A program made the translations under genes and the position numbers. From positions 32,001 through 96,000 of the IMG/VR virus record IMGVR_UViG_3300027782_000030: 64,000 bases of DNA; one strand, 5' to 3'. This DNA is from a virus. Its lineage: Duplodnaviria; Caudoviricetes. The notes beneath the pieces are model-generated. The model searched no databases. It was not told where the DNA came from and worked only from the letters and a program-made list of their open reading frames with translations. Shown here piece by piece: positions 12,014 through 59,805 of the stretch (its first letter is position 1; the number at the start of each line of letters is the position of its first letter).

Positions 12014-12064
12014 AAACTTTTCCCCTATTGTTAGAGAAGTTACTTAATATTTACTCTATTATCA

Positions 12065-13820: not shown

Positions 13821-13838
13821 ACTACTATTTAACAATAG

Positions 13839-13860
13839 TTATATTACAAACCTATTACAT
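13839..13860 (-). promoter_or_regulatory. Pho box upstream of plcP
   Basis: Minus strand ATGTAATAGGT TTGTAATATAA, then 7 nt, then TAAATA (13826-13831). Confidence 0.7.
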
Positions 13861-13887
13861 ATAAAAGCAACAACATAAAGAAATTAA

Positions 13888-14499: not shown

Positions 14500-14538
14500 T
14501 TACTCATTCTCTTAATCCTAAGTATTTATTCTAACCAT

Positions 14539-14562
14539 AAAAAAAGAGCCTCACGGCCCTTT
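14539..14562 (-). terminator. Rho-independent terminator
   Basis: Minus strand GGGCC-GTGA-GGCTC-TTTTTTT. Confidence 0.7.
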
Positions 14563-14645
14563 AGTGCTGGTTACGAGCTTCCAGCGATCCCTCTATCATG
14601 GGTCCGTTTTAAACAACCTTTTAATCCATATTCTTAATCTAAGTA

Positions 14646-15287
14646 TTACTTTCCCAATAAACTGTCGACCTTTGCTTCAACTGCATCTAACCGATGTTCA
14701 ATTTCATCTAGTGCAGGATCTGCTGGAGCGGAAACTGCTTCAAATATTTGTTGATGGACTTCAGAATTAACTGCTTCTCCTGTTGCTGTTGAAACAATAT
14801 GAGCTACCGCAGCGGCAATTTCTTCTGTACCTGCAGTTGGTGCAGGCATTTCAGCAACTGCTGCTGTAATAGCGGCTGTAATTGCTTCAGGGTCTGTGAC
14901 AACTTCAGGCTCTGCTGTAACAACTGCTAGTACCGCTGCTTTTACAATATCAGCAACTTCAGGGTTAACAATTGCATCTGCTTCGTGTTGAGCAGCTACT
15001 ACATCGCCAACAATGCCTGCGGCTTCTGCATGGTCAGCACTTGGTGAAAGTGCTAGTACATCTTCAACAGAAACTGGTGCTTCATCAGCTACGGAATAAA
15101 CAATGGCGTCAATATGGCTCTCAGTTTTTTCAGCGATCAAATGATCAACTTGAACTTCAACAACTGACAATCTGGTGTCTAGTTCTTCAATGCTTGTGGC
15201 ATAATCTGTGTTAACTTCTGTGCCAGTTAGTGTTGCTAACTTAGCTTCTACTGCTACTAATCTTGCGGCTAAATCTTGTAATCTCAT
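14646..15287 (-). CDS. Acidic Ala/Val-rich hypothetical protein with terminal coiled coils
   Basis: RBS AAGGAG before ATG 15287 (MRLQDLAARL); LxxRLxxVExKV-like heptads at both ends. Confidence 0.75.
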   Translation of the reverse strand: MRLQDLAARLVAVEAKLATLTGTEVNTDYATSIEELDTRLSVVEVQVDHLIAEKTESHIDAIVYSVADEAPVSVEDVLALSPSADHAEAAGIVGDVVAAQHEADAIVNPEVADIVKAAVLAVVTAEPEVVTDPEAITAAITAAVAEMPAPTAGTEEIAAAVAHIVSTATGEAVNSEVHQQIFEAVSAPADPALDEIEHRLDAVEAKVDSLLGK

Positions 15288-15346
15288 GGGTTGCTCCTTT
15301 AGGTTAGGTGAGTGAATCATGTCCACTCACCCTTATTTAACTGCTA

Positions 15347-15368
15347 CTATATTAAAGTAATATTACAA
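15347..15368 (-). promoter_or_regulatory. Pho box upstream of the acidic protein gene
   Basis: Minus strand TTGTAATATTA CTTTAATATAG, then 7 nt, then TAAATA (15334-15339). Confidence 0.6.
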
Positions 15369-15372
15369 AATA

Positions 15373-16947: not shown

Positions 16948-16972
16948 TTTAAAACTCCTTTTGTATGTTTGT

Positions 16973-17953
16973 TTATTTGACTAACTTTGCCCAATCGGCA
17001 CGAACTTGATCCTTAACCTTTTGGGGTAATGGAACATAATCTAGGTCTGTAGCGTCCTTGTCACCCTTTGTATAGACCCAATCAAAAAATTTGGTAACTT
17101 GTTTTGTTCGCTCTCCAGTAGGATATATGAGAATAAATGTAGCGGCAGTAATAGGCCATCCATCTAAATCATTGAGATTAACTGCCATGTTGGGCACTGA
17201 CCAGTCAGCAGTCTTGGCACTTTCAGCAAATGTTAAGTCATCTGGTTGAACTACAGCACCTTTGCGGTTCTTCATGGCCACATGAGTTAGTTTGCTCTGT
17301 TTAGCAAATGCGTACTCAACATAACCAATTGATCCTGCTAGTTGTTGAACGTTAGCAGCAACACCAGCATTACCTTTACCTGCTGAAAGACTTGTTGGCT
17401 TCCAAGTAACAGTTTTACCTGTACCAGTACCTGTTTTGAACTCAGGACTTACTTTACTCAAGTAATCAGTAAACACAGCAGTTGTACCTGATCCATCAGC
17501 ACGAACCACTACATTGATAGCAGCATCAGGAAGTGCTAGACCTGGGTTAAGTTTAACAATAGCAGCATCGTTCCACTTGCTGATTTTACCTTGATAAATG
17601 TCAGCTAGTGTCTTGCCATCAAGAATCATTTTACCTGGCTCAATACCTTTGATATTGATTACAGCAACAACTCCACCGATAACTGATGGGAATTGATATA
17701 GTCCAACTTCTTTTAATTTAGTATCTGGTGTAGGATCATCACTAGCACCAAAGTCTACGGTTTTAGCAATGATTTGAGCGACACCGCCACCACTTCCGAT
17801 TGGATTGTAGTTAACAGTAGTACCAGTTTCTTTGTTGTAGGCTGCTGCCCATTTTGAATAAATAGGAGCCGGGAAAGTTGCCCCGGCTCCAGTAATCTGT
17901 GCTTGTGCAGCAAATGCGGCTGCGGCTAATAGAATTCCAACAATTTTTTTCAT
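16973..17953 (-). CDS. pstS: Phosphate ABC transporter substrate-binding protein
   Basis: GAGATFP, GSGGG, DFGASD, RADGSGTT, GKGNAGV, GSIGYVEY. Confidence 0.96.
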   Translation of the reverse strand: MKKIVGILLAAAAFAAQAQITGAGATFPAPIYSKWAAAYNKETGTTVNYNPIGSGGGVAQIIAKTVDFGASDDPTPDTKLKEVGLYQFPSVIGGVVAVINIKGIEPGKMILDGKTLADIYQGKISKWNDAAIVKLNPGLALPDAAINVVVRADGSGTTAVFTDYLSKVSPEFKTGTGTGKTVTWKPTSLSAGKGNAGVAANVQQLAGSIGYVEYAFAKQSKLTHVAMKNRKGAVVQPDDLTFAESAKTADWSVPNMAVNLNDLDGWPITAATFILIYPTGERTKQVTKFFDWVYTKGDKDATDLDYVPLPQKVKDQVRADWAKLVK

Positions 17954-18003
17954 CTAATTTCCTTTATAGTATTGTGCATTTGCACAATACTATTTAAACA
18001 TAT

Positions 18004-18025
18004 TAATGTTACAGGAATATTACAA
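18004..18025 (-). promoter_or_regulatory. Pho box upstream of pstS-phoX
   Basis: Minus strand TTGTAATATTC CTGTAACATTA (consensus half-site CTGTCAT, 11-bp period), then 7 nt, then TAAATA (17991-17996). Confidence 0.85.
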
Positions 18026-18061
18026 GGCGCCCAAAATAGGTAATATTTTTAGAAAATTAAA

Positions 18062-18442
18062 TTAGACAGATTGTTTTGATTTATAATCTTCAATAGCCGA
18101 CTTGATTGCGTCTTCTGCTAAGATTGAGCAGTGGATTTTGACTGGCGGGAGGGCGAGTTCTTCTGCAATCTGTGTGTTTCTAATTGTTGCTGCCTCGTCG
18201 AGGGTTTTGCCTTTAACCCACTCTGTGACAAGACTTGAGCTAGCAATCGCTGACCCGCACCCATACGTTTTAAATCTAGCATCTTCTATTACTCCATTTT
18301 CATTTACTTTAATTTGAAGTTTCATCACATCACCGCATGCTGGGGCTCCGACTAGTCCAGTACCTATTGTATTGTCAATTTCAAATTTTCCAACATTGCG
18401 TGGGTTTTCATAATGCGATAATACTTGTGGTGAATAAGCCAT
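18062..18442 (-). CDS. iscU: Fe-S cluster scaffold protein
   Basis: HYENPRNVG, GAPACGDVM, FKTYGCGSAIASSS, LPPVKIHCSILAEDA. Confidence 0.96.
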   Translation of the reverse strand: MAYSPQVLSHYENPRNVGKFEIDNTIGTGLVGAPACGDVMKLQIKVNENGVIEDARFKTYGCGSAIASSSLVTEWVKGKTLDEAATIRNTQIAEELALPPVKIHCSILAEDAIKSAIEDYKSKQSV

Positions 18443-18463
18443 TGAAGTTCTCCTTTGTTGTAT

Positions 18464-18991
18464 TTAGTCATTAGTGGGAGATTCAAAAACTAACCACCCC
18501 AATTTAAATAAGTCATCTTTAATTTCTTCCGTGATTACACTTTCACTAACATAGCCCTTCATACCATCTTCGTCACCATTACCGAGACCACTGCCCATAC
18601 CAGAACAATACCAATCCATGTAGTCACCTTGTTCTCTGATATCCGCTACGATGCCACCGGCATATCTCCAAGAACAACTCCATGTTTTTTCTTCAAGAAT
18701 CGGCCATACTTCATTTTTTATAAACTGATTATTACATAGTGCGGCATAAAGAGTCTGAGCATACCTATCATCTTTACATTTTTCTGCCATCCAATCGGAA
18801 GTCAACAAATCATATTCCATATTGTTTTCTTGCCATGCAGCACTGCGCTCATTAATCAATCGTTCACCTATCATCTTTTCCCAAAAATTTAAGTAGTCTT
18901 GGTTAGGTTCTTGATCCTTTTCTTTACATCTTTCTATGTAACTTTGACGCTGAAAGGTGTACTTATCAGGACTAGAACGAAGTTTAGACAT
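18464..18991 (-). CDS. Hypothetical phage protein
   Basis: 175-aa ORF in a tight operon; no motif recognised. Confidence 0.65.
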   Translation of the reverse strand: MSKLRSSPDKYTFQRQSYIERCKEKDQEPNQDYLNFWEKMIGERLINERSAAWQENNMEYDLLTSDWMAEKCKDDRYAQTLYAALCNNQFIKNEVWPILEEKTWSCSWRYAGGIVADIREQGDYMDWYCSGMGSGLGNGDEDGMKGYVSESVITEEIKDDLFKLGWLVFESPTND

Positions 18992-19306
18992 TTACTTAAA
19001 ATAGATAAGCACCAGTGCCATTGCTTGAAGCATAAATCCTACGCCAATAGTAGCGATATTAAGCAAGTCTTTAAGCAAAATTGCACGGAAAAATAACAAA
19101 CATAGTGCAGACCACAACATCAATACAACATCTACATTAGGGGCTTTGTCAGTTAACCCTGTCATCAGTGCTAACAAAGATGGCAGAGTAGCCGCATGAA
19201 GCGCAATATTTGCTAGCCAACCTAAAGTATCCGCAGAAATTTTGTGTAGTTTAGTGGTAAAAAATTCAATTAAAGATGTATAAAGGTCTACTAACTTAGT
19301 CATCAT
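18992..19306 (-). CDS. Small multi-TM membrane protein
   Basis: Three hydrophobic helices. Confidence 0.65.
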   Translation of the reverse strand: MMTKLVDLYTSLIEFFTTKLHKISADTLGWLANIALHAATLPSLLALMTGLTDKAPNVDVVLMLWSALCLLFFRAILLKDLLNIATIGVGFMLQAMALVLIYFK

Positions 19307-19851
19307 GCTTTGTCCTTGTAAAAAATATGATTGCCGATTTTGTTAATTTTTTGGTATGGCCAAGCTGGGTTTACATACACAGCATGATAATACAGTGCAT
19401 CGTGCAAACTGTCAAGTCTAAATCCTTCTAACAACACTTTTTTGGCTACCGCATAACTTTCTTTATATGCTTCGTCTGTGGGCTTATTTTTATTCTTGCC
19501 TATACAATACCAACTAAATTGGCATACTACCTTTTCCATGATGATGTTCTTTTGGTAAACTACAGCACATACATCTTTGGGAAATCTAGGATCATCTACA
19601 CGATTAAGGGTTACTTGAGCAACTGCTACTTTACCCTCAAACGACTCTTGCGCCGCTTCTTTATAAATATTCATAGCCAAACAATCTAGTGTTCTGTCTA
19701 CATTTTTTGCGGATACATATGACCGAGGTTTTTCTAAAGCCACTTCTTGAACAGAGCCAAACTTAAAAGCGGTTACTGCGTTAATAACTACTGCAAGTAA
19801 TAAAATACCAAAAATACTATTAATCATTCTGATTGAAAATGCCATTTTCAA
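19303..19851 (-). CDS. SleB-like cell wall hydrolase (Hydrolase_2)
   Basis: CLAMNIYKEA, AVAQVTLNRV, QFSW, ALYYHA, IGNHIFY. Confidence 0.9.
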   Translation of the reverse strand: MKMAFSIRMINSIFGILLLAVVINAVTAFKFGSVQEVALEKPRSYVSAKNVDRTLDCLAMNIYKEAAQESFEGKVAVAQVTLNRVDDPRFPKDVCAVVYQKNIIMEKVVCQFSWYCIGKNKNKPTDEAYKESYAVAKKVLLEGFRLDSLHDALYYHAVYVNPAWPYQKINKIGNHIFYKDKA

Positions 19852-19924
19852 CTCCTTTTAGTAAAAGTAACTCGTCGGATGAGTATATCATCCTTTCCAA
19901 TTCCACTCAATAGAAACGGGTTAC

Positions 19925-21676
19925 TTAATTTATCCAACAGTCACAATTGCACTTGATGACTTCTTCAATTGCATCTGCTACATTGTAAACTGATGGCGAC
20001 AAAACTGCTGCGGTCAGAGCCGCATTTAGATTTGGTGGAATAAGGTTGCTCACCGGTGATCCGGCTAAACTACCTGGGAACGCAGGTCCTCCTATATCTA
20101 ATGGAGTACCTTGTGAATTTGGACCTCCTGCTATAACAGCAATAGGTTCTAACCCAGCTGATCCAGCTTCTAAAATTGCAGAAACTAAACCTGATCTGGG
20201 GTTAACTGATGGTTTGGAAATACCACCTGCAATAGGACTAGTAGCCGATATGATAGGTTGAGCGGGCCCTGTTCCATTTTTAGCAGGTCCTAATAAATTT
20301 TTATTATTAGGATTATTTCGTGCTGTATTTAAAATTTGTTTAATAGGTGATATAGGCTGAGTTGTTGCTAACTTAAATTGAGTAGTATTAGGGTCATAAT
20401 ACCCAATTGGCTGAGCAACAGAATTGCTAGGTAAAGTAAAGGTAGTATTTGGGTTATCAAAGTCTCCGTTAATACCTGTAACTGTAATTCCCTCTATGCC
20501 TGTAGGTAGTGTGCCATTAGAAATCAAAATTTCTATTTCTTGTTGATCCAATTCACCTGGTATATTATTGTCTAACTCTATACCGATCTCTTGTAATCTA
20601 GCACCATTTCTTTCTTGTCGCATCATTGCTACGATGCTTTGACCACCAACTGTAGTTAAATCACTAATAGCCTCTAGCGTTTGAGCATACATATGAGGTA
20701 GAGTGCTTTTTGCAATAGTAGGTATTGAGTCAACAAATACATATAGAGAAGTTGGATACAAGTTTAGCCAAATATCTCTTGTAGGGCTAGGAACTGGAGC
20801 TATACCTGTGTACCTAGTTCTTTGTTCTATAGTAAGTTGCGTACCAAATGCATCATATATCGTGTTTAAATCTACACTGAGTATAGGATTAACTGTCCGT
20901 ATAACTGCTATCTCTGCATTAGCAGCATCAATATAGTATTGTACCGCTGTATTCATTCCTGGCCATCCTGCACTACCATAAGTAGTTGGAGGATTGGCTA
21001 CTGTTCCTGTAGGTACTATCACCGTAACTGGCCCTGCTGAAGTTAGCGCAACTGAAAGTATTCTACCATAAGTAGATAAATCATTAGGATCAGTGCCGAT
21101 AGTAGTACTACCCGTCCCGCCGTTACTTAAAGTAATGCTAGGCGCAGCAGCACCTTCTCTACCATACCCGCCACCTGAATCAGTTAATGTTATTCCTGTA
21201 ACAGTATAGTTTCCAAACCCATCATCAGTATATTGAACAGAAACAGTACCAACTTCCCATATAACTGCTAGATATAAATTTTGATATATGTTTACTAATG
21301 TAGTTGTTTGTAGCGACTGAATACTTGATTGAATGTCAGTCCAAGCATATGGTAAACCACTCATACAACCTAAAAAATCACTCATGGTATAGGTGCCATA
21401 TGGACCGCTCCCCAAAGCAATACGATCATATGCTGCTGAAGCTAAATTAGTACTAGTTGGCACATCTGTACCATTAACTTGATCTAATCCTTTAGTTGTT
21501 TCAATGTTAAAAACTACTTGAGAAAATTTCTCAAAGTCAACGTTGCGGATATTTCTAATCTGCTGCATAGTAGCAGAGAAGGCTCCTGCTGTAACCGCTA
21601 TTTCATCAGGTAGTATCCCTGATAAATATGAACCAAAGCCTTCTTTTGCTACTTGAAAATTTAATGTATCTGCCAT
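19925..21676 (-). CDS. Probable virion structural protein
   Basis: T/G/S-rich 583-aa ORF co-transcribed with PAAR; ends CNCDCW. Confidence 0.55.
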   Translation of the reverse strand: MADTLNFQVAKEGFGSYLSGILPDEIAVTAGAFSATMQQIRNIRNVDFEKFSQVVFNIETTKGLDQVNGTDVPTSTNLASAAYDRIALGSGPYGTYTMSDFLGCMSGLPYAWTDIQSSIQSLQTTTLVNIYQNLYLAVIWEVGTVSVQYTDDGFGNYTVTGITLTDSGGGYGREGAAAPSITLSNGGTGSTTIGTDPNDLSTYGRILSVALTSAGPVTVIVPTGTVANPPTTYGSAGWPGMNTAVQYYIDAANAEIAVIRTVNPILSVDLNTIYDAFGTQLTIEQRTRYTGIAPVPSPTRDIWLNLYPTSLYVFVDSIPTIAKSTLPHMYAQTLEAISDLTTVGGQSIVAMMRQERNGARLQEIGIELDNNIPGELDQQEIEILISNGTLPTGIEGITVTGINGDFDNPNTTFTLPSNSVAQPIGYYDPNTTQFKLATTQPISPIKQILNTARNNPNNKNLLGPAKNGTGPAQPIISATSPIAGGISKPSVNPRSGLVSAILEAGSAGLEPIAVIAGGPNSQGTPLDIGGPAFPGSLAGSPVSNLIPPNLNAALTAAVLSPSVYNVADAIEEVIKCNCDCWIN

Positions 21677-21678
21677 AA

Positions 21679-23373
21679 TTAGTTTAGAACCTCATTAGTA
21701 CCTATCACCTGTTTGACATTATGAGATACTAACCCTTCTGTCAAATAAGTATGAGCATCTGCTACAGTAATCTTTACTACTTCCCCAAAAGAATGTGGTT
21801 TAGTATATTTTACTACTGCTAACTTATTATGGGATGTGATAATATCCCCTGGCATTAATCTTTCAATTTCTATCCAACCTTCTTCTGTTAACATCCTATG
21901 ATTGGCCGAACCTACAAATATAGTATCGTCAACTACTACTTGCCATCTATTAGCATTTTCAAATGATACTGCGGTTACGGGGTACTCACCCCATTCTTTA
22001 GTAGTTTCATGCTGAGTATAAACTAACATACCCTCTTTAACATCTTTGGCATGTATTGAAGTTTTGTCTGCCAACATAATATTGATCCACGGTGCAGGAC
22101 ATCCACCACCTCTATATCGTTCAAGAGGAACTGCGGTTGGGGCTACTTCAGGTGGAATCGGAGCAGGTGGTTCTACTATAGCAGGTGGGCCAGGTGGGAT
22201 AATTACACCTATTTGTTCAACTATTGCAGGTGCTTCTAGCCTAGAACTCACTGAAGTATTGTCAAATATAGGATAGTATGTTTTAGAATTAGTTGGTCCT
22301 GGATTAGCATTATAGATAGGCACAGTCAATGATTGATAACTGTTAGGAAACAATTTCTTAATGTTTAACAAATCAGCAAGAGACTCTAATCCTTGGGTTT
22401 TACAATTTAATGGTATTAATATGTCATCTAAATCTTGACCTATAATAATTAAAAATGCCCCGTATATCTGTTGCTCTTGTAATTTAGTAGGGGTTAACAA
22501 TCTTCCACTAGCAATATCATCAATATCTTGTGATGCCAATCCTGCTGACAATAGCGACAATGCTAATGACTGTGTTATTGTATTATACTTTTTAATAGTT
22601 TGTAGTAGTACTGAGGGTAAACCAAACTTTAGTATCTTTGATAAGTCTATTACCTTACCTGCGGTAATACAGTCTTGACCAAACGCTTGAGTTGCTAGAC
22701 TAACACCAGTTACATCAGCACTGATGAGGTCATTCATATTACTATAAGTGCCTTTAAGGAACTTGCTAGATCCTTGTATTGCATTGATTGTAGTATTAGA
22801 ATAATCTATAAAATTTTGAGCATTTAGAAAACTTGATACAAAATCTTTATACTCAGGCATGCCTGAACCTGCTACAATGCCATTCCAATTAAATTCATTC
22901 CAAGCTTGAAGAGCATATAATCTCAAAAATCCCCATTGGGTAACACTTTTGTTATTATTAGTAGTATCATAAGGAATCCAAGTTGCACTTTGTCCATCGC
23001 CAGTATCACCAGCTGTTGAATAACCAGTCGTTGCCTCTCCTTGCCATTGACCAGTAGGGTCACTAGTAGTGTATCCTGGGCTTTTTGCATTACCTAATGC
23101 AGGGATAATATCTTCACCTATAGCAATTAAATTGTCATAGGTCGAAGTTCCTGTAGGAGTTTTAGCAACATTGCCATTATACGCAGCATATATGGCATAG
23201 GTCAAAGGTTTTAAACATGTGTTGTTAACTAGACTACCCGGAGTGTAAGTAGTATTTGTCTTACTGGTTCCTATGTACCCTTGATTAGTAGGGTTAATAC
23301 ATAGCCCTATATTTTGTAATAAGGAACTATTTACATTTACACCTAATGGACTTTGTTTACCTGTAATACTCAT
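21679..23373 (-). CDS. Probable virion structural protein with C-terminal Hint domain
   Basis: Pro-rich linker then GGG|CPAPW...SANHRMLT...HTY...VSHN. Confidence 0.75.
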   Translation of the reverse strand: MSITGKQSPLGVNVNSSLLQNIGLCINPTNQGYIGTSKTNTTYTPGSLVNNTCLKPLTYAIYAAYNGNVAKTPTGTSTYDNLIAIGEDIIPALGNAKSPGYTTSDPTGQWQGEATTGYSTAGDTGDGQSATWIPYDTTNNNKSVTQWGFLRLYALQAWNEFNWNGIVAGSGMPEYKDFVSSFLNAQNFIDYSNTTINAIQGSSKFLKGTYSNMNDLISADVTGVSLATQAFGQDCITAGKVIDLSKILKFGLPSVLLQTIKKYNTITQSLALSLLSAGLASQDIDDIASGRLLTPTKLQEQQIYGAFLIIIGQDLDDILIPLNCKTQGLESLADLLNIKKLFPNSYQSLTVPIYNANPGPTNSKTYYPIFDNTSVSSRLEAPAIVEQIGVIIPPGPPAIVEPPAPIPPEVAPTAVPLERYRGGGCPAPWINIMLADKTSIHAKDVKEGMLVYTQHETTKEWGEYPVTAVSFENANRWQVVVDDTIFVGSANHRMLTEEGWIEIERLMPGDIITSHNKLAVVKYTKPHSFGEVVKITVADAHTYLTEGLVSHNVKQVIGTNEVLN

Positions 23374-23651
23374 GGGCAGTATACGTCCGGGCTACCATCT
23401 ACGATAGGATGACCGCATGTATTACCTGAACCAGTTCTTAATACAGGTTCTCCTTCAGCAAAAACAGTAGGACTACCTGATGTAGTTCTAGCAGCACTAT
23501 GCGGAGGATGGGGTTTTCCAAACGGAGCATGGGGAGTCATTACACTTACATGTAATCCCACAGGTATACCATTAGCGAATACCGTGCCGGCTCCCCGCAT
23601 AATTTTTCCACCTGCGGAATTTGCATCACCCTGTCTGCTCAATTGCGCCAT
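23370..23651 (-). CDS. PAAR-domain spike tip protein (gp5.4-like)
   Basis: SRQGD, TVFANGIP, PH, TVFAEGEP, CGH. Confidence 0.9.
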   Translation of the reverse strand: MAQLSRQGDANSAGGKIMRGAGTVFANGIPVGLHVSVMTPHAPFGKPHPPHSAARTTSGSPTVFAEGEPVLRTGSGNTCGHPIVDGSPDVYCP

Positions 23652-23652
23652 A

Positions 23653-23949
23653 TTATCCTAAGATTAATTTTTTATTAGGTACTGCTATTCCAGTTGTTGC
23701 TTGAGTATATTTTGCTTGTATACTCTCATCCGTTATTCCATAAATTGCAATACTATTAGTATTTAGCTTTATTTCACCCTCGGGATTTGCGGTAAACAGA
23801 CTAGGAACTAGTCCTAACCCCTGTGGTCCGGGTGCTACTGATACTGGATCAAAAATAGTAATAAAATCTGTTTCTACTTTAATTACTTTAGCGATCAATT
23901 CTTCTCCACTGTTTAATTTAAACGTGTAAATTTCATCTTTATTAAGCAT
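23653..23949 (-). CDS. Conserved T4-like hypothetical (Sm-like beta fold)
   Basis: TFKLNSGEELIAK...YTQATTGI motif typical of T4-like phages. Confidence 0.6.
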   Translation of the reverse strand: MLNKDEIYTFKLNSGEELIAKVIKVETDFITIFDPVSVAPGPQGLGLVPSLFTANPEGEIKLNTNSIAIYGITDESIQAKYTQATTGIAVPNKKLILG

Positions 23950-23957
23950 TATATTCC

Positions 23958-24182
23958 TTAGGCTGCTAATTTTTGTTTGAGTTCTGGAAACCCACCCACA
24001 TACTCTTCACCGAGAAAAATTTGTGGCACTGATCGGGCAGTTGGTACTGCCTCTAATAATTCTTCTTTTGTCCAACCTTCACCAATTTTCTTTTCTTCAA
24101 ATTGAATTCCTTTGCTTGTTAGCAATGCTTTTGCTTGGTCACAATAAGAACAATTGTTTTTACTCCATACTGTAGCTTTCAT
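23958..24182 (-). CDS. Glutaredoxin
   Basis: CSYC, RSVPQIF, YVGGF. Confidence 0.93.
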   Translation of the reverse strand: MKATVWSKNNCSYCDQAKALLTSKGIQFEEKKIGEGWTKEELLEAVPTARSVPQIFLGEEYVGGFPELKQKLAA

Positions 24183-41331: not shown

Positions 41332-41341
41332 AGTGTATTTA

Positions 41342-44300
41342 TTAAATTTTGCTGTACTTCAATAAATCACTTTGAGTATTATTGCTCTCGGATAATTCAC
41401 TAATCATATCGTCTAATTTAGCAATCATTACATCAAATTTATCAGTAAGCATTTCAATTATTCTATCATTAATATCAGTTTCAGTAATAGTAGAAGTTGT
41501 AGTTGTTGCATTTTCTACTGTCTGAGTAGCAGGAGTGGTTGCCAATTTTTCTAATATAGAATTAGCGTCCAATGGGGCAGTAATTTCTCTCCCATGATGT
41601 TCTACAGGATAGCCTGTCATAGGTCCATCAAAGATACCGCCCATTGCAGCTTGGGGGATTTCACCTGACTGTAATTTACTTGAATAGGCTTGAGCAAGTT
41701 GCGCTCTTTTTTGAGTTTCGGCTCGTCCTCCGGCATAGCCAACAGACTTACCAACTTGTTCAATATTACCAAGATCAACCCCGCGAGATTGTTTTTCTTT
41801 GAAATATACAGCAGCAAGTTTAGCTGCAATGTCTGGATCATTTGCTAAATCCGGATCTTTTACTAAATCAACACCAATGAGCTTTCCATATTTTTCGTAA
41901 TTATCTTTACCGGTGAGTTGTATTAACCCTCTTCCTCTATATTTGTAGCCTTCATCCGCAGCATTGCCCATTCTGCCGCCATATATAAGATTACCAACTG
42001 CTTCAGGACCCTGTTGTACAACACTCTGTGCTTCTTCCATTGATCTGAAACGAACTTTATTTCCGCTGCCCGGGCCATACAACCTAAATAATGTTTGTGC
42101 GCTATACTTACCAACATCTTCTGATCTTGACCTAAAACCCGATTCAGATTGAACCTGTGACATAAGATTAGCAACAGAACCAGTATCAGTTATGCCTTGG
42201 TTTTTTAACTCTGCTAAAAATTTAGTTTGCTGTTCTCCCGTAGTTGCAGTTGGTTGAGCTCCTGATGACAACCTAGCACCCATATTACTGAATGCCCCTC
42301 CACCAGTAGATCCTCCACCAGTAGATCCTCCACCGGCGCTAGTACTACTACCACTACCAATCTGTCCTGTTGCTACTTTTAATTGTTTAGTAAAATTAGT
42401 TAAATCAAAGAATGCATTTTTAAATCCACCGGTAACTCCGCTTGTACCTTCGACAAAATCTTCAAGCTTTTCAGTTTCTTCTTCTTTAAGTTCTAGTTGA
42501 TCTTCAATTTCCTTGTTCCATTTACTAAATGTTCCTGTTAATTTTTTCAATATTGCATCAGAATCTTTTAAACTCTTACTAAATGCTTCAGCATTTTCTT
42601 TTTCTTCTTTACTATCTGTTAAATCCTCATCATTGGATGTACTTTCAAATATGTCAGGTAGGGCTGTTTTAGATGATAGGGGTATAACTGCTTCATTGCC
42701 GTGTAATTCAACAGGATAGCCCGATTTAGGACCACTGAATACACCGCCTTCGGCAGCTTTTGGCATTGCTTCTAAATTTTTCTTTTCTTCAGCAATTTTC
42801 ATATCAATGGTTTTCAACATCTCTTCATGAGATTCTTTGCTTTGTTGATTCCGTGTCCTAGGACCCTGTTCTTCAAGTTTTTTCCTTTGTCTTTCAAGGT
42901 CTTCTATTTTTTCTTTACCCTTTAACTCCCTTTCATTTTGTTTAAGTGTAGGAGTGGTAGTATCTTTTTTCCCCGTATTACTAGCTAATTGTGTATTATA
43001 CTGGGCCATTATTTCAGAAGGATAAGTATTTCCTGAATTTATGGACATCTTCATTACTGCAAGTTGTTTGTCTGATAGTGGCTTACCAGAAACCACTCGT
43101 TCCCCTGCAATTTTTGTATACTCTTCGGATGTCTTCGTTTGTTTAGCTGATCCAGTTGGTGATTTTGTTTCTTCAGCTGGCTTCTGTTCAAAGGATGATG
43201 CCGGTCTATTTGACATTTTACCCAATTCTCTTTTAGCGTTAACTAACTCATCTATTGCTTTTTTCTGATCAGCCTCTCGTCCAAATCCCATTTTTTGAGC
43301 AAAGGATGCAGTTTCCATAGACTTTGCATACTTGGCTTCAGCTTCTACAATTTTTTCTTTTGCCTTTTGAATCGCCTCTTCTTTTTTAGCTTGAGCCTCT
43401 TTATTTTTTTCCTCTTTCTTTTGAAGTTCCTCTTCTTTATTTTTAATTTTTTCTTTTGCTGCTTTGTCTACTTCCAATTCTTTAAGTTTTTCTGCCCAAT
43501 ATTTTACACCTCTATCCGCTGCGGTTTTTTCTTCAGCAGTAGTAGCTGTTTTTTGAGCAGCAAGAGCCTCATCTTGTTTGGCCTTAGCATCTACTATTTC
43601 TTTTTCTTTTTCTGCAAGATCACTTTTTGCATTATCTAGAGTAGATACTTTTTCACCAAGTTTTTCTCCTACTAATTGTCCACCTTTACCTCCCAACCAT
43701 CCACCTAATGCACCACCGATAGCAGTACCTATACCAGGTAATATCGCAGTTCCAATTGCTGCACCTATTAGTGTTCCGGAGGCAGTTCCTGCACCTTCAC
43801 CTAATGCGCCGCCTTTCTTTTTGTTAGCTTCTTCTTCGGTAATTTTTCCTTCTTTTAATTCTTTAGCAGCATCTTGATATCCACTATAGGCTTGATATCC
43901 TCCCACAACTGCGCCTAATCCCGCTGTACCGGCAGTAGACCCTAATACTTTACCAACCGATCCCAATGTTTTAGTTAATGCTGACATGCTTGATGACAAC
44001 GACGATGCCGCAGCCGTTGCTGCAGGTGCTGCCGCTGCAGGGGCAGCAGCACTAGCAGGAACTAACAGCCCACTTGCCGATTTTACAAAGCCAGGTGCAG
44101 CAGATGCAGCAGCACTTGTTGCTGCTGGCACTGCCCCTGCTGCTGCCCCTATACCTCCGATTCCCGCCATCCTGCCTAAAGCGCCTGCCCCTGCTTTTAA
44201 TATTTGCGCCCCTGCAAAAGCAGCAAGTGCCATTGCGGCACCCACTGCCGCAGTTTCTAGTAATCCTACGGCTACAGTGGTAGCATCAAAGCCTTTAACT

Positions 44301-45908: not shown

Positions 45909-46739
45909 ATGTCACTTGATAACAACCCACTTAAACAATATTTTCGTCGTCCAGCGGTATATATTAAACTACCCAGTGGTGGCAGTTACTATCCGCCTGG
46001 TGTAGTAAATATACCTGAATCAGGTGAATTACCTGTATATCCAATGACGGCTATTGACGAAATTACTACCAAAACACCTGATGCCTTGTTCAACGGCACT
46101 GCAATGTGTGAGTTAATTAAAAGTTGTATACCTGATATTAAAGACCCGTGGCAAGTTAATAGTGTTGACTTTGATGCGATTCTTATTGGTATTCGTGCAG
46201 CAGGTGGCGGTAATGATATGGAAATTGAATCCAAATGTACTAAATGCGAAGAAATTAGTACTTACGGAATAAATTTAACAGGATTGTTAACATCTCTTTC
46301 CTCGGGAAATTATCAAGACGAACTACAAATCAATGATTTGGCAATTAAATTTAGACCATTAACATATAAGCAAATGAATGATGCCGCTTTAGGGCAGTTT
46401 GAGGTACAGCGGTTATTTATCCAATTAGAAACTGAAACTGATAATGACGAACGTACTAGAAAAAGTAAGGAAGCATTAGAATCTGTTACTAATTTAACAA
46501 TGGAACTTCTTACAGAAGCCATAGAATATATTCAGACGCCAGCCGTACAGGTTACTGAGAAAGAATATATCTTTGATTTCTTAAGAAATTGTGATAAGAA
46601 AATGTATGTCACTATCCGTGATTACAATGCTGAACTAAAAAGCCAAACTGAAATTAAGCCATTAAAGATGAGATGCATCCATTGTCAGCATCAGTACGAG
46701 CAACCCTTTACATTGAATACATCCGATTTTTTCGAATGA
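45909..46739 (+). CDS. gp26: Baseplate hub assembly protein
   Basis: NPLKQYFRRP..YI.LPS, MTA.DE...KTPDAL.NG, D.DAIL..IR. Confidence 0.85.
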   Translation: MSLDNNPLKQYFRRPAVYIKLPSGGSYYPPGVVNIPESGELPVYPMTAIDEITTKTPDALFNGTAMCELIKSCIPDIKDPWQVNSVDFDAILIGIRAAGGGNDMEIESKCTKCEEISTYGINLTGLLTSLSSGNYQDELQINDLAIKFRPLTYKQMNDAALGQFEVQRLFIQLETETDNDERTRKSKEALESVTNLTMELLTEAIEYIQTPAVQVTEKEYIFDFLRNCDKKMYVTIRDYNAELKSQTEIKPLKMRCIHCQHQYEQPFTLNTSDFFE

Positions 46740-46963
46740 TGCTTCTGCGCCTTCCCCCTGAAGGCATACAGAAGCTTATAGAAAACTACGAAAAAGCAGT
46801 TGATGAGATTAAAAAATCAGCCATAACAATGGCTTGGTATATGAGGGGCGGTGTGTCCTATGTGGACATACTGAATATGTCTACTGTGGAAAGACAACAA
46901 ATAAATGAATTGATTGAGAGCAACTTAGAGACTACCAAGAAGTCTCAGATGCCTTTTTTCTGA
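46736..46963 (+). CDS. Small baseplate/tail assembly protein (gp51-like)
   Basis: ATGA overlap with gp26; WYMRGG.SY..ILNMS..ER pattern. Confidence 0.65.
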   Translation: MMLLRLPPEGIQKLIENYEKAVDEIKKSAITMAWYMRGGVSYVDILNMSTVERQQINELIESNLETTKKSQMPFF

Positions 46964-47469
46964 CCATACCTATTCATTTATCTTTCTTATATTATCCTTT
47001 ATTTGAAGATGAGCTAACGCTCATCTAAGACCTCACTTCGTTCGGTCTTATTCTTACTCTTAAAAATTCTTTTTAATCACTTAAGTAAGGAGATTACATT
47101 GCCGATTAGAGAGCCATGGTAGTGCTGTTCAGCACTACCAATGATTGGGACATTGCCACGACCGTCATCCATTGTCATCTTTTCCCCGTATAATCAGCTA
47201 TTTGGGCTATTATACGCTACCGGTTGCTCTGTAAAGTTTATCGGGACTGTAGTGAGACTAATCATAATATGACTGCCTCCGCAACGCACATTCTATAACG
47301 CAAAGATGAAGTTGTTATAGACTTGTTCAGGGTTCGCACACATAACGAGAGCCCTGTCGGTATTCCACAAGTACACTAGGTACTTGTGCTTACTCCAGAT
47401 CCATCGGCTACGAGCCTTACCTCGGCTGATTCAAGGAGGGTCGAGGAACCTCAACCAAACAAATTGTTA
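46964..47469. ncRNA. Candidate large structured non-coding RNA (or origin-like element)
   Basis: ~500 nt without a credible ORF; at least 7 hairpins (see findings). Confidence 0.5.
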
Positions 47470-48036
47470 TTATGTATTAAGAGGGAGAAGTGATTTAGTT
47501 TGAAGATTTGTAATTGACGTGGTGTCTGTTGTGCCTGAATATGTTTTTACTAAATCTTTATTGAGTTTAAAAAAATGATCAAATTCTATGATAAGCCAAT
47601 CGCCAAGTTTAGGACTAGTATAGTATAAAAATTGATCTGTGATCCACGTTAATTTGGATTGTACCGCGACAAATTTCCCCTTTCTGTTAAATTTCATAAA
47701 CAGTAAATTAAGATCATCGTCTTCGGCTACATCCATTAATTGAGCCAACCAACTATTTAGTTGCTTGCAATCACCAGTAAGTACTAAGTGAAAAGGGAAA
47801 TCAGCGTATGATTTACATTCTATGTTCATTCTACCGAAGTTTTGTCCAGGTACTACGTCGCCCTTAAAACTGCGAACCTGTCCTTCATGTAAAAAATCTT
47901 TACGCCGTTGATTACTGCCACCGATATATGCCCCTGAACCAGGAGCCCTAATAAAACTCTCGCCATACAAATTAGATAGAAATTTAGCAATTTCTCTTTC
48001 AAATGATGAGCCTTTGTTTTTGCTAGGTGATGACAT
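47470..48036 (-). CDS. PD-(D/E)XK Holliday junction resolvase-like nuclease
   Basis: KGSSFERE, GSGA, GDVV, IECK. Confidence 0.8.
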   Translation of the reverse strand: MSSPSKNKGSSFEREIAKFLSNLYGESFIRAPGSGAYIGGSNQRRKDFLHEGQVRSFKGDVVPGQNFGRMNIECKSYADFPFHLVLTGDCKQLNSWLAQLMDVAEDDDLNLLFMKFNRKGKFVAVQSKLTWITDQFLYYTSPKLGDWLIIEFDHFFKLNKDLVKTYSGTTDTTSITNLQTKSLLPLNT

Positions 48037-48070
48037 GTGTTTACTTATGATGATTTTAACGTATCAAAAT

Positions 48071-49825
48071 TTATTCTATCTCAGTGGCTGTACTATAACT
48101 AGTAAAACCTTTTTCCTTAATAACTTTCAATACATTGGGTACCCTACCAGCCAATTCTTCGCGGTGACTGACAAGCCAAATAGATTTTTGTCTACGGCGT
48201 GACATATCTTTAAGAATTGCTATAGCGTTTTCAACACCCATTGTATCCAACCCTGAATCAATTAATTCATCAATGAATAGAGTATTGATGGGTGAATATA
48301 AGTTCTCCCATACATCTCTAAAAGCAAAACTTAATCCTAAGATTAAACGATTGCGTTCTCCACGTGATAAATTATCAAAGTCAAGGTCTCTACCAAGTTC
48401 TGTAATTTCAACCTGAAGATCATTTTGAAATACAACTTGATGAGGTAGTCCTATCTTGTCCAAATAATGAGTAAGCCTGCTGTTAAGATAAGATAGATTT
48501 TGGTCTATAATCTTTTTACGAACAAATGAATCTTTACTACTTAATAGGTCAAGTAAGAATTTTTGATGTTCTAATGTTTTAGTTAATCGGTTAATATTTT
48601 CAAAATCAATTTCTTGTAGAGCCTGACTCTCCATTTCATTAATCTGTTCATCATACGGATCAACTTCTGCGGCTTTGTTTTCTATAGAAACTAAAGTATT
48701 AGCAATCTGACTAGAATGTTTAACTGCTTCCGCTTCGGTTTTATAATGTGTAGTGGGTTTAGTACTTACAAACACTGGATTAACTTCAAGACCTTGTATC
48801 GTGGCATGAAGTTCATCCAAATGCTTTTTACTTTCGGTTAACGCTTCAATCTTTTTATTTAAAACATCAGAATGAGATTCATCATGGAACTCTTGCCCAC
48901 ACGCATAGCACTTATGCTCTTTAAGAGTTTGAACCTCAGTATCTAACTTAGCCCAAGTTTTCTTTTCTTTGGCTAGATCGGCTTTTGCTCTACTAAGATT
49001 GTTTCCGTGTTCAGTTTGTAAACGAACCTGATCGTTATAGATAACCAAATCTTTGTGTGCTTGTAGTTCTTTCTCTATATCAATAGCACTTAACTTGGTA
49101 TACTCGGTAGCAAGTTTTTTCAAGTCTTCGTCATGTTTAGTTTTCCAAAGTTTTTGCCTACGCTTTAACGCTTCAATTTGTTCTTTAACACGCTTGTTGG
49201 CTTCTTCAATGGCTTTGACTTTGAATTCTTCAGATTGGATAGAGTCTTTGCTTTCTTTAATTAGATTTTTAATTACCTCAGATTTTTCTGAGAGAATTGT
49301 AATTCCTAAAAGTTGTTCAATAATGTTTCGTTGTTCGTTAGTTTTAAGAGCAAGGAATGGTTCGCTGTAAGTATTCAACGCAACAATATGCTTGAACATA
49401 TCCGCGGACATACATATAATTTTTTCTATGGCTTGTTGAGTTTCTTTGTTCTCACCTTGGGCATCATCAATGCCTTTTTGTAAGTCATTGTTAACATAGA
49501 ACCGAAGTATATTGGGTTTACGACCACGCTCAATCTTGTAGTCAATGCCATTAACACTAAACTCAAGTGTAACCATCATACCCCTACCATTGGTACGGTT
49601 GACTAAATTATCTTTTCTAATGCTATTAATGGGCACGCCAAACAGAGCATATGACAGCCCTTGAATCAGAGTAGTTTTACCAGTACCATTTCTAGCACCG
49701 TCACCGCCCAAGTCTAAGTTTTCACCTAGAATTAGAGTAAGTTCTTTCTTGTTAAAATCAACTGCTTGCGTTACTTGTCCAATAGACAAGAAATTACGCA
49801 AGGTAATATTACGAAATACAATCAT
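48071..49825 (-). CDS. gp46: SbcC/Rad50-like recombination ATPase
   Basis: NGTGKTT Walker A, CYAC zinc hook, LSRGE signature, FIDE Walker B. Confidence 0.95.
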   Translation of the reverse strand: MIVFRNITLRNFLSIGQVTQAVDFNKKELTLILGENLDLGGDGARNGTGKTTLIQGLSYALFGVPINSIRKDNLVNRTNGRGMMVTLEFSVNGIDYKIERGRKPNILRFYVNNDLQKGIDDAQGENKETQQAIEKIICMSADMFKHIVALNTYSEPFLALKTNEQRNIIEQLLGITILSEKSEVIKNLIKESKDSIQSEEFKVKAIEEANKRVKEQIEALKRRQKLWKTKHDEDLKKLATEYTKLSAIDIEKELQAHKDLVIYNDQVRLQTEHGNNLSRAKADLAKEKKTWAKLDTEVQTLKEHKCYACGQEFHDESHSDVLNKKIEALTESKKHLDELHATIQGLEVNPVFVSTKPTTHYKTEAEAVKHSSQIANTLVSIENKAAEVDPYDEQINEMESQALQEIDFENINRLTKTLEHQKFLLDLLSSKDSFVRKKIIDQNLSYLNSRLTHYLDKIGLPHQVVFQNDLQVEITELGRDLDFDNLSRGERNRLILGLSFAFRDVWENLYSPINTLFIDELIDSGLDTMGVENAIAILKDMSRRRQKSIWLVSHREELAGRVPNVLKVIKEKGFTSYSTATEIE

Positions 49826-50832
49826 AGATTATTATAAATGTCCAGCAAAAGCCTTTTGTCAAAACTATTGCTTTCTATCGCATTGATTTGGTCAATGATA
49901 ATTTGATCAACGGATTCAAATTTGAGTCCATCTGAATTGTATTGCTCAATGGCTTCTACCTTCATAGGTATAAGCGTCATTTCACGCAACTTATATTCAG
50001 GAATCATAGTTTCACGGATAAAATTGGCTTCTTCATAACTGATATCAATATCAAGATGTACTCTAACATAACTATCAATCAATAACAAACTTTCTGGGGT
50101 TTCTAGTATATCACTTAATTTATAAACACGGAATATAGGTTGTCTAGGCCAACTACGAAATACTGGATCACTTCCCCATTCTAGAATCATCATTCCCCTA
50201 GCATCATCACCCACATCAGCGTAATTGTGAGGGAAGGCATTGCCCATATACCAAATATTCTTTCGGTGTTGTCGTTTATGAAAATGTCCACTAAAAGCTG
50301 TTTCAAAACCTTGAACATGATTCTCATTTAGTTCTCCGTGATCGGGCATTTGAACCATGGCATTCATGTAGAAATGAGGTAGTTCAAGATGTCCAAATAG
50401 ATACTTACCAGACAATTTACCTAATTTTTTATAATCATCCTGAACCAACCAAGGGATAATAGATACATCACCTTGCTTGAAAAAATCATTAATGATAACA
50501 ACATTGGGTAAATGTTTTGCCCATTCAACGCTATGAATATCTCTACGGTCTCGGTAATATAAATCATGATTACCTGGGATAAAATACACAACATCAAATG
50601 CGGCACTTAGTTTTTCAAGTGCCTGTAATCCAAACTGAAGTGTGTGAATATTGATACTTGCTCTATGGTGATTATAGTCACCCAAAAAGAAACAAGTTTC
50701 ACAGTTTTCTTTTTTGGCTTCGGCGATAAACCAATCTACAAAATTAGCACAGTCTTGATTGTGTTGTAGACTGTTCGACTTAAGGCCAAAGTGTAGGTCT
50801 GTAAAAGCAGCCGCTTTCTTAAATAAATTCAT
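49822..50832 (-). CDS. gp47: SbcD/Mre11-like nuclease
   Basis: TDLHFG, LGD, GNHD, GHLE, SGHFH. Confidence 0.94.
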   Translation of the reverse strand: MNLFKKAAAFTDLHFGLKSNSLQHNQDCANFVDWFIAEAKKENCETCFFLGDYNHHRASINIHTLQFGLQALEKLSAAFDVVYFIPGNHDLYYRDRRDIHSVEWAKHLPNVVIINDFFKQGDVSIIPWLVQDDYKKLGKLSGKYLFGHLELPHFYMNAMVQMPDHGELNENHVQGFETAFSGHFHKRQHRKNIWYMGNAFPHNYADVGDDARGMMILEWGSDPVFRSWPRQPIFRVYKLSDILETPESLLLIDSYVRVHLDIDISYEEANFIRETMIPEYKLREMTLIPMKVEAIEQYNSDGLKFESVDQIIIDQINAIESNSFDKRLLLDIYNNL

Positions 50833-59100: not shown

Positions 59101-59798
59101 AAGGTGCTACCGCCGGAATACAAGGAATAGCTGGTAGTATAACAGGGGCAATGTCATCTAGCCCAATGGGACAACTAGCCTCTGCGGTAAGCGGATCAGG
59201 AATAACTAGTTTAACAGGTGGAGTTAATAGCATTGCAAGTGCTGCAGGATTATCATTAACTAATGTCTTACCAGGTGGATTAACTGGTGGAATACCTGAT
59301 GTTGCTGGTCAAATTGGCGGGGCATTAAATAAACTCAAATCGGGTACTAGTAGTCTTTCATCATTGGCTCTAAATGGATTGCCTCCTGGCGCTTCGGCTG
59401 AAATAAGCGCAGCAATGTCATCATTAACTTCAATGGGATCTTCTCCTGTTAAACTCCCAACTGTAGCGGCTAATACTTTTGACAGAAGTGAAATTACAGC
59501 ACAAATTAGTTCCTTATTAGGCAATCCAAAAATACCTAAACCAAACTTCACAGGAGAAGTTCCAAGTGCAGCAAAAGCGGCTCTACAAGCAGCGCAAGAA
59601 AAAGTTACAAAATCTACTATAGTAAGTTCGGAAGTAGCTACTCTTTCAATAGATTTAAAATACGCACAATCACAACTTGAAGGAGCCGAACAATCATATC
59701 CTCCAGGTGATCCTGAAATAGAAACTGCTAAAGAAAAGGTATTAGAATTAGTTGCTAAACTTGAAGCTAAGAGCCAAGAGCTATCTTCTCTAACATAA
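56130..59798 (+). CDS. gp5: Baseplate spike protein (gp5/VgrG-like OB fold and beta-helix) with long Ala/Gly/Ser-rich extension
   Basis: DPTRSGRLQV, SYGMW..PPD.G, GHQ.LM.D, HAPW. Confidence 0.8.
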   Translation: MEDGFKPQGPTKASKPDSGGGVTREVPVLGVVKNNIDPTRSGRLQVYISDLGDDNPDESESWVTVSYMTPFYGFVTPKAATKGFGDYTANPSSYGMWYSPPDLGTTVICIFINGDPNYGYWIGCVPKPEALHMVPAIGASTNIIANTEGEAEGYGGATRLPVTNINTNNESISDTADFLTQPKPVHSYSAMILNQQGLIRDPVRGTISSSAQRESPSRVGWGISTPGRPIYDGGYDDATIVDAAVGEVPDEGLAVIARRGGHSIVLDDGDILGQDQLVRIRSAAGHQILMSDDGQTLFIIHSNGQSYIELGKEGTIDMYSTNSVNIRTQGDLNLHADNNININAKKKLNIKAEDINIESEKTTSQKIGTNNSVYTMGTFTHKVDGAMSMAAGGEGSYASGGVMYVNGSKVNLNTGATSTTPQVVPAISVLAHTDTLYDSSKGYAAAPGKLQSITSRAPAHAPWANAGQGVDVKTSSSASSELPPAPSPAVASTNEAASAATTEAPATPATIATVPPVAAASGALDPNTTGAMVSAVATTVAAGPASRAIQAGAGVVSSSQGPVAVVGSLAQTPAQLESAGILKPGSATLVNSLVQGGSNVQAAMTDNLFTGVPGAVNLKSLVNSIPAQVSAQVSTFQQSQTALTNAGVITGKESPVSTAGLIMAGATAGVGATLNSMSSLVSTSTVNSIGKTLGASANLSKALGATGAAKSILSTSSAITSTLKAGNLAAGLAQTVSGGLGSISQATKALNQLQGLNSAILGASRGPAAQAFGAILGTFKPLKAGIPQNLFSIARNALRTADAVSKGDIIKSATGALSTIGAIGGPGTSKITGALSGTVNAIGRLTSATTPAAAFRGLTGLIGGIGSVGAAVGNKNVSQISKQVNSALTGANKILQAGTQLSKATDIAGSLNATANAVRGANQLTAALGGVSALASGISNLPGGQKAISNVINKSPNSMTSALPAVLAVGALVSTTLSAAKNNISPQLSLQGATAGIQGIAGSITGAMSSSPMGQLASAVSGSGITSLTGGVNSIASAAGLSLTNVLPGGLTGGIPDVAGQIGGALNKLKSGTSSLSSLALNGLPPGASAEISAAMSSLTSMGSSPVKLPTVAANTFDRSEITAQISSLLGNPKIPKPNFTGEVPSAAKAALQAAQEKVTKSTIVSSEVATLSIDLKYAQSQLEGAEQSYPPGDPEIETAKEKVLELVAKLEAKSQELSSLT

Positions 59799-59805
59799 AT
59801 ACATT

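Follow-up and report, generated by a model that had tools for sequence, protein, structure and literature searches.

A predicted twin-box RNA behind a nuclease gene of uncultured T4-like jumbo phages

It is rare to find a large RNA that is intricately folded and has no known job, and RNase P, transfer-messenger RNA (tmRNA), the group I and II introns and, lately, the GOLLD, ROOL and OLE assemblies each opened new biochemistry. Cryo-electron microscopy has provided structures of GOLLD, ROOL and OLE (PMC12286853). These three and raiA are alike in several respects: they are several hundred nucleotides long, were found by comparative genomics, contain many helices and pseudoknots and long invariant unpaired runs, and are of unknown function. 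Here we describe a candidate of this kind, the 'twin-box' RNA, in a 64,000-nt stretch (the window) that starts at position 32001 of a 200,570-bp IMG/VR virus record (IMGVR_UViG_3300027782_000030; 58% complete by CheckV) from a T4-like jumbo phage. The minus strand of positions 47095-47466, in the gap behind a PD-(D/E)XK nuclease gene, very probably encodes a real structured non-coding RNA (ncRNA).

Like GOLLD and ROOL, the twin-box RNA is phage-borne. It is smaller than both. It differs from GOLLD, ROOL, OLE and raiA in that it matches no Rfam model, occupies a fixed site behind a nuclease gene, carries twin boxes and does not lie beside transfer RNA (tRNA) genes.

Bacterial small RNAs derived from 3' untranslated regions (UTRs) and the omega RNAs of TnpB resemble it in position, in that the RNA lies at or just past a stop codon, in the same sense, with no terminator between. 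The twin-box RNA is, however, much larger and more knotted than the 3'-UTR small RNAs, and unlike the omega RNAs it lacks both a transposon context and a long guide segment. The twin boxes each take the form of a codon with an A behind it, like the specifier loop of T-box leader RNAs. On the other hand, no T-box model matched, T-box leaders have one box instead of two, and no regulated gene lies downstream of the twin-box RNA.

Conservation and extent of the RNA

The gap behind the nuclease gene (46964-47469, 506 nt) was described earlier as a hairpin-dense region free of open reading frames (ORFs), between the gp51-like gene and the resolvase gene. On these points the description held up: the gap is ORF-free, and every local stem reported was present at its place. 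The flanking genes are convergent and complete. The G+C content of the gap was 0.44-0.45, versus about 0.31-0.36 in the adjoining intervals, and on either strand it folded about 4 standard deviations better than its dinucleotide shuffles did (z -3.95 and -4.10).

Homologs were collected in two ways. The two flanking proteins, used as queries, gave 107 loci from IMG/VR, and a 22-base pattern taken from the invariant blocks gave at least 120 further viral stretches. The gap was kept at 68-79% nucleotide identity by blastn in 88 of the 107 loci, while the flanking proteins were only 49-76% identical. The RNA was matched by nhmmer in at least 208 loci (208 of the 234 related loci fetched, all from uncultured phages), and among the matches listed 196 full-length copies were cut out, of which 130 were distinct.

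In the loci fetched by the RNA pattern alone, 91 of the 95 that had room for it carried the nuclease gene immediately upstream, in the same orientation, and the convergent hub gene was present in 99 of 102 (both among the matches listed). These comparisons showed that a whole clade of T4-like jumbo phages, abundant in fresh water but uncultured, keeps the predicted RNA at the same spot.

The conservation profile of the gap fell into two blocks, 47003-47050 and approximately 47095-47466, split by an indel-rich, poorly conserved and AT-rich spacer at about 47051-47094. The larger block was assigned to the RNA. Both of its ends were placed by conservation, the 3' end being the point where conservation stops. 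The whole gap had been proposed to be one large ncRNA; this held for about 370 of the 506 nt, and failed for about 50 nt that form terminator-like hairpins on the plus strand. The stems at 47007-47026 and 47026-47050, which had been counted in, are real hairpins lying outside the core RNA, beyond the AT-rich spacer.

None of the Rfam 15 covariance models matched the 64-kb window at gathering thresholds. The families covered include GOLLD, ROOL, OLE, raiA, HEARO, RNase P, group I and II introns, 6S, SRP and T-box. Relaxing the search of 46600-47800 to E up to 10 gave two matches, both at chance level (E 2.7 and 6; SNORD46 and JPX). ARAGORN detected no tRNA or tmRNA gene in the window. These are all consistent with the failure of the preliminary description to recognise a tRNA, tmRNA or group I core. 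A group I intron was rejected also on the gene layout, the flanking genes being convergent and complete.

The 1.2-kb region matched nothing among GenBank phages at the DNA level, and searching them with the invariant hairpin gave chance matches only. The 22-base pattern had seven matches across 185,579 prokaryote genomes, and these were taken to be chance because nhmmer confirmed none of them. By every catalogue searched, the predicted RNA is a new family of the general kind of large ornate phage or bacterial ncRNAs. It may figure among the uncharacterised candidates of a 10,000-candidate catalogue of phage RNAs (PMC10690425).

Fold and strand of the RNA

Two sequence-only MAFFT alignments were analysed, one of the central domain (A2; 73 sequences) and one of the full length (A3; 80 sequences less than 90% identical). 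Mutual information with average-product correction, calculated from 131 sequences, recovered the nested helices and also two long-range pairings that RNAalifold had missed. The full-length model built on A3 contained 12 nested helices and 2 pseudoknots, with 81 pairs in all, and 93.6% of the cells were paired.

Compensatory changes were seen in 62 of these 81 pairs. There were 988 doubly changed cells, compared with 296 +/- 14 in shuffled alignments; none of 500 shuffles did as well, and partners slid out of register paired in 30-42% of cells. The central domain (A2) gave 30 pairs, of which 24 had compensatory changes, and 97.8% of the cells were paired, versus 29-37% with the partners slid by 1-3 columns; no shuffle out of 500 matched this. 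The ncRNA proposed in the preliminary description thus gained covariation among homologs, above both the slid and the shuffled controls, and this record of covariation is among the cleaner ones obtainable by comparing sequences.

Five of the stems listed in that description proved to be helices of the conserved, covarying structure: 47117-47140 (H1), 47187-47216 (H2), 47292-47321 (H7), 47328-47356 (H8) and 47366-47388 (H9). The long-range pair ATGATTGG/CTAATCAT, on the other hand, was dropped, being paired in 46% of cells across the homologs, which is the chance level.

The comparisons show a modelled fold with a 5' hairpin and, between the twin boxes towards the 3' end, a second hairpin that is invariant; the fold further contains an invariant CUCC/GGAG helix, a central domain that branches four ways, and two pseudoknots. 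From 5' to 3', the elements are an A-rich leader, H12, H10 enclosing H11, H9, the core (H3-H8), H2, the pseudoknot strands, the invariant GGAUGACGG, box Y, H1 and box X (Table 1). The pseudoknots tie the 3' third of the RNA back onto the core. A covariance model of the core (R1) scored 144.5 bits at the window locus, which was the sole copy in the 200-kb record.

H1 differs from the other helices in its constancy: it contains 12 invariant bases in a row and shows no covariation, and its extension has a U-G pair in 11 sequences, on the minus strand only. The base of H1 also forms an invariant palindromic CCAUGG, which is the sole hint towards RNA-only homo-oligomers such as those of GOLLD, ROOL and OLE. 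Mutual information further linked two column triplets, 47218/47235/47362 and 47236/47336/47346. This suggests base triples, or alternative pairings, of the GUAAAGU junction with H3 and H8.

The wobble pairs were used to read the strand. With the minus strand taken as RNA, the 81 pairs in the 80 sequences contained 332 G-U versus 68 A-C combinations, and at least three G-U cells were present in 32 pair columns, versus 7 columns with at least three A-C cells. Read on the plus strand, the covarying helices had far more A-C than G-U, for instance 152 versus 14 in H2. H12 in the window pairs without a mismatch on the minus strand alone; its U-G there corresponds to C-A on the plus strand. The excess of G-U on the minus strand indicated that the RNA has the orientation of the nuclease gene, starting a few bases past its stop codon.

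An RNA on the plus strand had been hinted at in the preliminary description, from G-U pairs on that strand and A-C pairs on the other. For the conserved core the bias is the reverse. The corrected strand and boundaries matter for any synthesis, probing or imaging of the RNA.

The twin boxes and possible roles of the RNA

The twin boxes changed together between lineages while staying identical to each other. On the plus strand the pairs of words included ATTGCCGC/TTGCCATGC, ATTACC/ATTACC, ACTTGC/ACTTGC, ATTGCT/ATTGCT and TTCAAC/TTCAAC in different lineages. The strongest non-Watson-Crick covariation in the RNA linked 47105 with 47161, where all four bases occur and, in 86% of 131 sequences, the two boxes agree. 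Each box was identical to its own partner at 6.25 of 8 positions, compared with 5.16 +/- 0.07 when the boxes were shuffled among sequences. This was as expected if both boxes read the same co-evolving partner.

No complementary partner of the boxes was found in cis, variant lineages included. In the genome the box word occurred in 8 and 13 copies versus about 3 expected per strand, a modest enrichment without a telling pattern. The matched boxes provide a direct experimental handle.

Late boxes of the ATAAATA type precede many genes, often only 12-13 nt before the ATG, so that the late mRNAs would be leaderless or nearly leaderless. Examples of ATAAATA or ATAAGTA at this spacing are at 41332-41346 (portal), 48041-48049 (nuclease) and 59794-59805 (the gene at 59806), among others. 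The nuclease gene has a late-promoter-like CATAAGTAA that begins 13 nt before its ATG. No terminator-like element was found between the nuclease gene and the RNA; H12 was considered as an intrinsic terminator and rejected, as no U-run follows the hairpin. At the 5' edge of the RNA, TATAAATA-like matches (at most one mismatch) cluster and the homologs keep the motif ATAAAAATT; the window itself has no exact ATAAATA.

Late co-transcription with the nuclease is therefore likely, because of the late box of the nuclease, the lack of a terminator between and the ATAAAAATT motif, and a start of its own is possible. The leader at 47456-47469 would be either a weak late-promoter-like box or a single-stranded 5' leader.

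The explanation we favour is an undescribed family of ncRNAs of about 370 nt, which would be made late and act in trans through its fold, with the twin boxes binding two copies of one partner. The RNA would be transcribed at least as a 3' continuation of the nuclease mRNA, with a possible contribution from the weak late-promoter-like box at the 5' end of the RNA. It would then function by virtue of its tertiary fold, as a particle made either of RNA only or of RNA and protein. The boxes, being single-stranded, would recognise two copies of a partner that co-evolves with the phage lineage, most likely by base pairing to nucleic acid. A trans-acting, fold-dependent role was ranked first because unpaired runs are so invariant in sequence, because there are two pseudoknots, and because the boxes match. 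We hold this statement as a whole tentatively, at a little short of an even chance.

Several points weigh against this explanation. The covariation cells come from related sequences and are less independent than the shuffle statistics make them. Both the trans-acting role and the base pairing of the boxes are guesses. In addition, in nearly all loci the RNA starts within about 5-15 nt of the stop codon, a position equally well suited to an element of the 3' UTR that acts purely in cis. We would place such a cis-acting element second, and a ribozyme, a partner of the nuclease, a tRNA dock and a DNA element after it.

A cis-acting element would belong to the 3' UTR of the late nuclease mRNA and have no role in trans. 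Its compact knotted fold might keep 3'-to-5' exonucleases out, stop or insulate transcription where the two late operons converge, or adjust how much nuclease is made. The position of the RNA just past the stop codon, in the same sense and with no terminator between, is as expected from this, and so is the late-promoter-like box of the nuclease gene itself. In more distant relatives, moreover, another structured RNA (RF01718) takes the same slot. However, about 370 nt with two pseudoknots, invariant single-stranded runs and twin boxes is far beyond the needs of known bacterial 3' stabilisers, and nuclease homologs in PA5oct, SCTP-2 and a further distant phage (L049) have no such element. We consider this alternative unlikely, though likelier than the others.

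A ribozyme could process itself out of the nuclease transcript, or act on tRNA or mRNA. In its size, its pseudoknotted core and its many unpaired nucleotides that do not vary, the RNA is like a typical catalytic RNA. No Rfam ribozyme matched even with E up to 10, however, the order of the helices is unlike that in RNase P or group I introns, and the convergent flanking genes leave no exons to join. This makes a ribozyme improbable. The segment GGAAUACCG...ACAGAGCAACCGGUA has what we took to be a faint likeness to P4 and J2/4 of RNase P; it was rejected on the helix topology, which does not fit, and for want of a covariance model match.

Slightly less probable than a ribozyme is a tRNA-binding RNA, in which each twin box would be a codon-like specifier for an anticodon loop, mostly that of tRNA-Gly(GCC), and two tRNAs would be docked, sensed or shielded. 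The boxes read GGCAA on the RNA, that is, GGC followed by A, comparable to T-box specifier loops. This fourth base A, which would stand opposite U33, is nearly invariant (T on the plus strand in 125 and 114 of 131 sequences), and the 'codon' shifts in step in both boxes to GGU, AGC, GCA or UUG. The record contains 21 tRNA genes, including a tRNA-Gly(GCC) with the anticodon loop UUGCCAA, and other large phage RNAs, GOLLD and ROOL, are often near tRNA genes.

On the other hand, the complementarity to the phage tRNA-Gly ends at 5 bp, no T-box or other tRNA-binding family matched, and the RNA is about 55 kb from the tRNA cluster. The pattern was also read after the fact, from a short and mostly conserved word. 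If true, this reading would give the phage a double dock for tRNAs, similar to a T-box, with which tRNAs are sensed, sequestered or shielded in late infection. More broadly, it would be a new class of large phage RNA that owes its specificity to two matched, single-stranded reader boxes. The 21 tRNA genes form one minus-strand cluster at 9257-24110 of the record, outside the window, which also includes Gly(UCC), two Trp(CCA) and two Asn(GUU).

The preliminary description had suggested that the RNA might partner the adjacent nuclease. It would then be a guide or scaffold, laid out like a TnpB omega RNA, as expected from the strict adjacency and same sense of the two, the lineage-specific boxes at the 3' end and the approximately 60 residues of the nuclease that lie outside its Pfam core. 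However, synteny is conserved across the whole phage clade, so that adjacency carries little weight for a partnership. The nuclease homologs in other phages do without the RNA, the variable boxes are only 8-10 nt long, and by annotation the nuclease belongs to a family of structure-specific junction resolvases. We doubt this alternative a shade more than the tRNA dock.

An element acting as DNA, which had also been put forward earlier as a replication origin or cruciform substrate, is very improbable. It would be an origin, a cruciform or a set of protein-binding iterons, with the boxes as direct repeats around an inverted repeat. H1 is indeed a perfect invariant inverted repeat between direct repeats, and is by itself almost uninformative on RNA versus DNA. 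The other 11 helices and both pseudoknots, however, are kept by strand-specific G-U wobbles, which are expected of selection on RNA and not on duplex DNA; the H1 extension has its U-G on the minus strand only, and the flanking genes are convergent and not divergent. A cruciform as a symmetric substrate of the resolvase was rejected by reasoning only, because the boxes are direct and not inverted repeats and therefore not two-fold symmetric cleavage sites.

A decayed or very short protein-coding gene can practically be dismissed: short ORFs are present, among them one of 33 aa at 47077-47178 (minus strand), but none was conserved in frame or position among 58 homologs, and the substitutions in the helices are compensatory and not codon-periodic.

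Two translational readings of shorter segments were tried and rejected. For a micro-ORF ending in the invariant UAG, 45 of 114 sequences lacked a start motif or ATG, and the remaining 69 were split 36/22/11 by frame. A translational hop across the boxes like that of gene 60 was set aside, as the reading frame is not conserved. The 200-kb record (58% complete) contained no reverse transcriptase (for template switching between the direct repeats), no ribosomal protein bS21 (for the anti-Shine-Dalgarno-like CCUCCUU) and no RegB.

The slot in distant phages and the surrounding locus

By their nuclease, the closest cultured phages are Salicola phage SCTP-2 (43% identity) and Pseudomonas phage PA5oct (40%), and both are without the RNA. 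R1 gave no match in more distant phages (nuclease at most 57% identical), in PA5oct and SCTP-2, or at the RF01718 loci. In PA5oct (L255, record 75704-77180), approximately 1.5 kb upstream of the nuclease homolog is annotated with hypothetical ORFs of 39-50 aa only, and R1 had no match there. On the 3' side of the nuclease gene, the distant phages have a convergent gene (L049), an extra ORF and an AT-rich gap, or a 480-nt gap (L047 and L058).

This 480-nt gap is opened by RF01718, the Polynucleobacter-1 RNA, which scored 114.9 bits in L058 and 92.7 bits in L047 with a 141-position covariance model (threshold 37 bits). Polynucleobacter-1 was described as a freshwater motif of unknown function (PMC2864571). 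It starts directly past the stop codon of the homologous PDDEXK_15 nuclease gene in L058 (4499-4640), L047 (4526-4660) and L243 (about 4640-4760), which is the slot and sense of the twin-box RNA. In the window RF01718 gave no match even with E up to 10; the 200-kb record also gave none, in a scan whose controls likewise gave none.

Neither model matched the loci of the other. We interpreted Polynucleobacter-1 as an analogous tenant of the slot, homology not being shown, so that by these predictions at least two structured RNAs, unrelated to each other, occupy the slot behind the nuclease. In the distant relatives the conserved ORF-free gap measures about 390-480 nt, of which RF01718 covers just the first 140 nt; a larger phage RNA may therefore exist, with RF01718 as its 5' domain. 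The L058 locus also contains two identical 8-nt words 63 nt apart, comparable to the twin boxes.

A sequence pattern derived from RF01718 fetched 18 more viral loci, which were not re-scanned against Rfam. A general link between RF01718 and the nuclease was rejected, the nuclease lying beside it in only one of the 18 (L243).

Table 1. Predicted elements of the twin-box RNA and features next to it (window positions; strand that is read)
Feature	Position	Strand	Remarks
'Twin-box' RNA, structured ncRNA of about 370 nt	47095..47466	minus	5' end just past nuclease stop codon
A-rich leader, consensus ATAAAAATTnGTTG (RNA sense)	47456..47469	minus	Between nuclease stop and H12; anchored homolog comparison
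H12, 5'-terminal hairpin	47440..47455	minus	Directly past leader; 6/6 pairs covary, many G-U on minus strand
H10, invariant 4-bp helix	47393-47396 with 47435-47438	minus	CUCC...GGAG within near-invariant CCUCCUUGA and CUGGAGU
H11, hairpin enclosed by H10	47403-47409 with 47424-47430	minus	One pair CG:37/UG:36 on minus strand
H9, variable-sequence hairpin	47366..47388	minus	7/7 pairs covary
Central multi-branch domain	47218..47362	minus	H3-H8
H3	47218-47222 with 47358-47362	minus	
H4	47223-47228 with 47280-47285	minus	
H5, variable hairpin	47256-47277	minus	
H6	47288-47290 with 47324-47326	minus	
H7	47292-47299 with 47314-47321	minus	
H8	47328-47336 with 47346-47356	minus	
PK1 (pseudoknot)	47175-47179 with H7 loop 47305-47309	minus	Top mutual-information pairs; 5/5 pairs covary, 97.5% paired
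PK2 (pseudoknot)	47183-47186 with 47243-47246 (large junction, central domain)	minus	Mutual information; 4/4 pairs covary, 93.8% paired
H2 hairpin	47188..47215	minus	9/9 pairs covary, 95.1% paired
H1, sequence-invariant hairpin GGUAGUGC...GCACUACC	47114..47144	minus	Between twin boxes; extended by CCAU/AUGG
Box X, ATTGCCGA on plus strand, UCGGCAAU on RNA	47098..47105	minus	3' end of RNA
Box Y, ATTGCCACGA on plus strand	47152..47161	minus	Box X word plus 2-nt insert; other side of H1
Two hairpins, then T-rich run	47003-47050	plus	Separate from core RNA
gp26/gp51-type baseplate-hub gene	45909-46739	plus	
ORF	46673-46963	plus	Left border of gap, convergent with nuclease
PD-(D/E)XK nuclease gene	47470-48036	minus	Pfam PDDEXK_15; PHROG 'RusA-like Holliday junction resolvase'; directly upstream of RNA, same sense

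The T4-type genes recognised include the gp20 portal, a gp46/gp47-like SbcCD (48071-50832, minus strand) and a gp55-like late sigma factor.

Of the two plus-strand hairpins at 47003-47050, the first (47007-47026) covaries among homologs and has a C(UUCG)G loop on the plus strand in most of them, and the second (47026-47050) is followed by the T-rich run. They are probably the 3' end or terminator of the plus-strand gp26/gp51-like operon. A simple terminator scan gave no call there. A scan of the gap for sigma-70 promoters and terminators gave nothing useful.

Many homologs of the spacer contain two TACGG copies about 30-38 nt apart, an arrangement absent from the spacer in the window (47051-47094). 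Many also contain TTTACG-N16-TAYTNT, which is like a plus-strand sigma-70-type promoter pointing into the RNA gene, that is, antisense to it; this is likewise absent in the window. At the end of the hub gene, a slippery T TTT TTC is present at 46727-46739, and the following ORF is open in the -1 frame.

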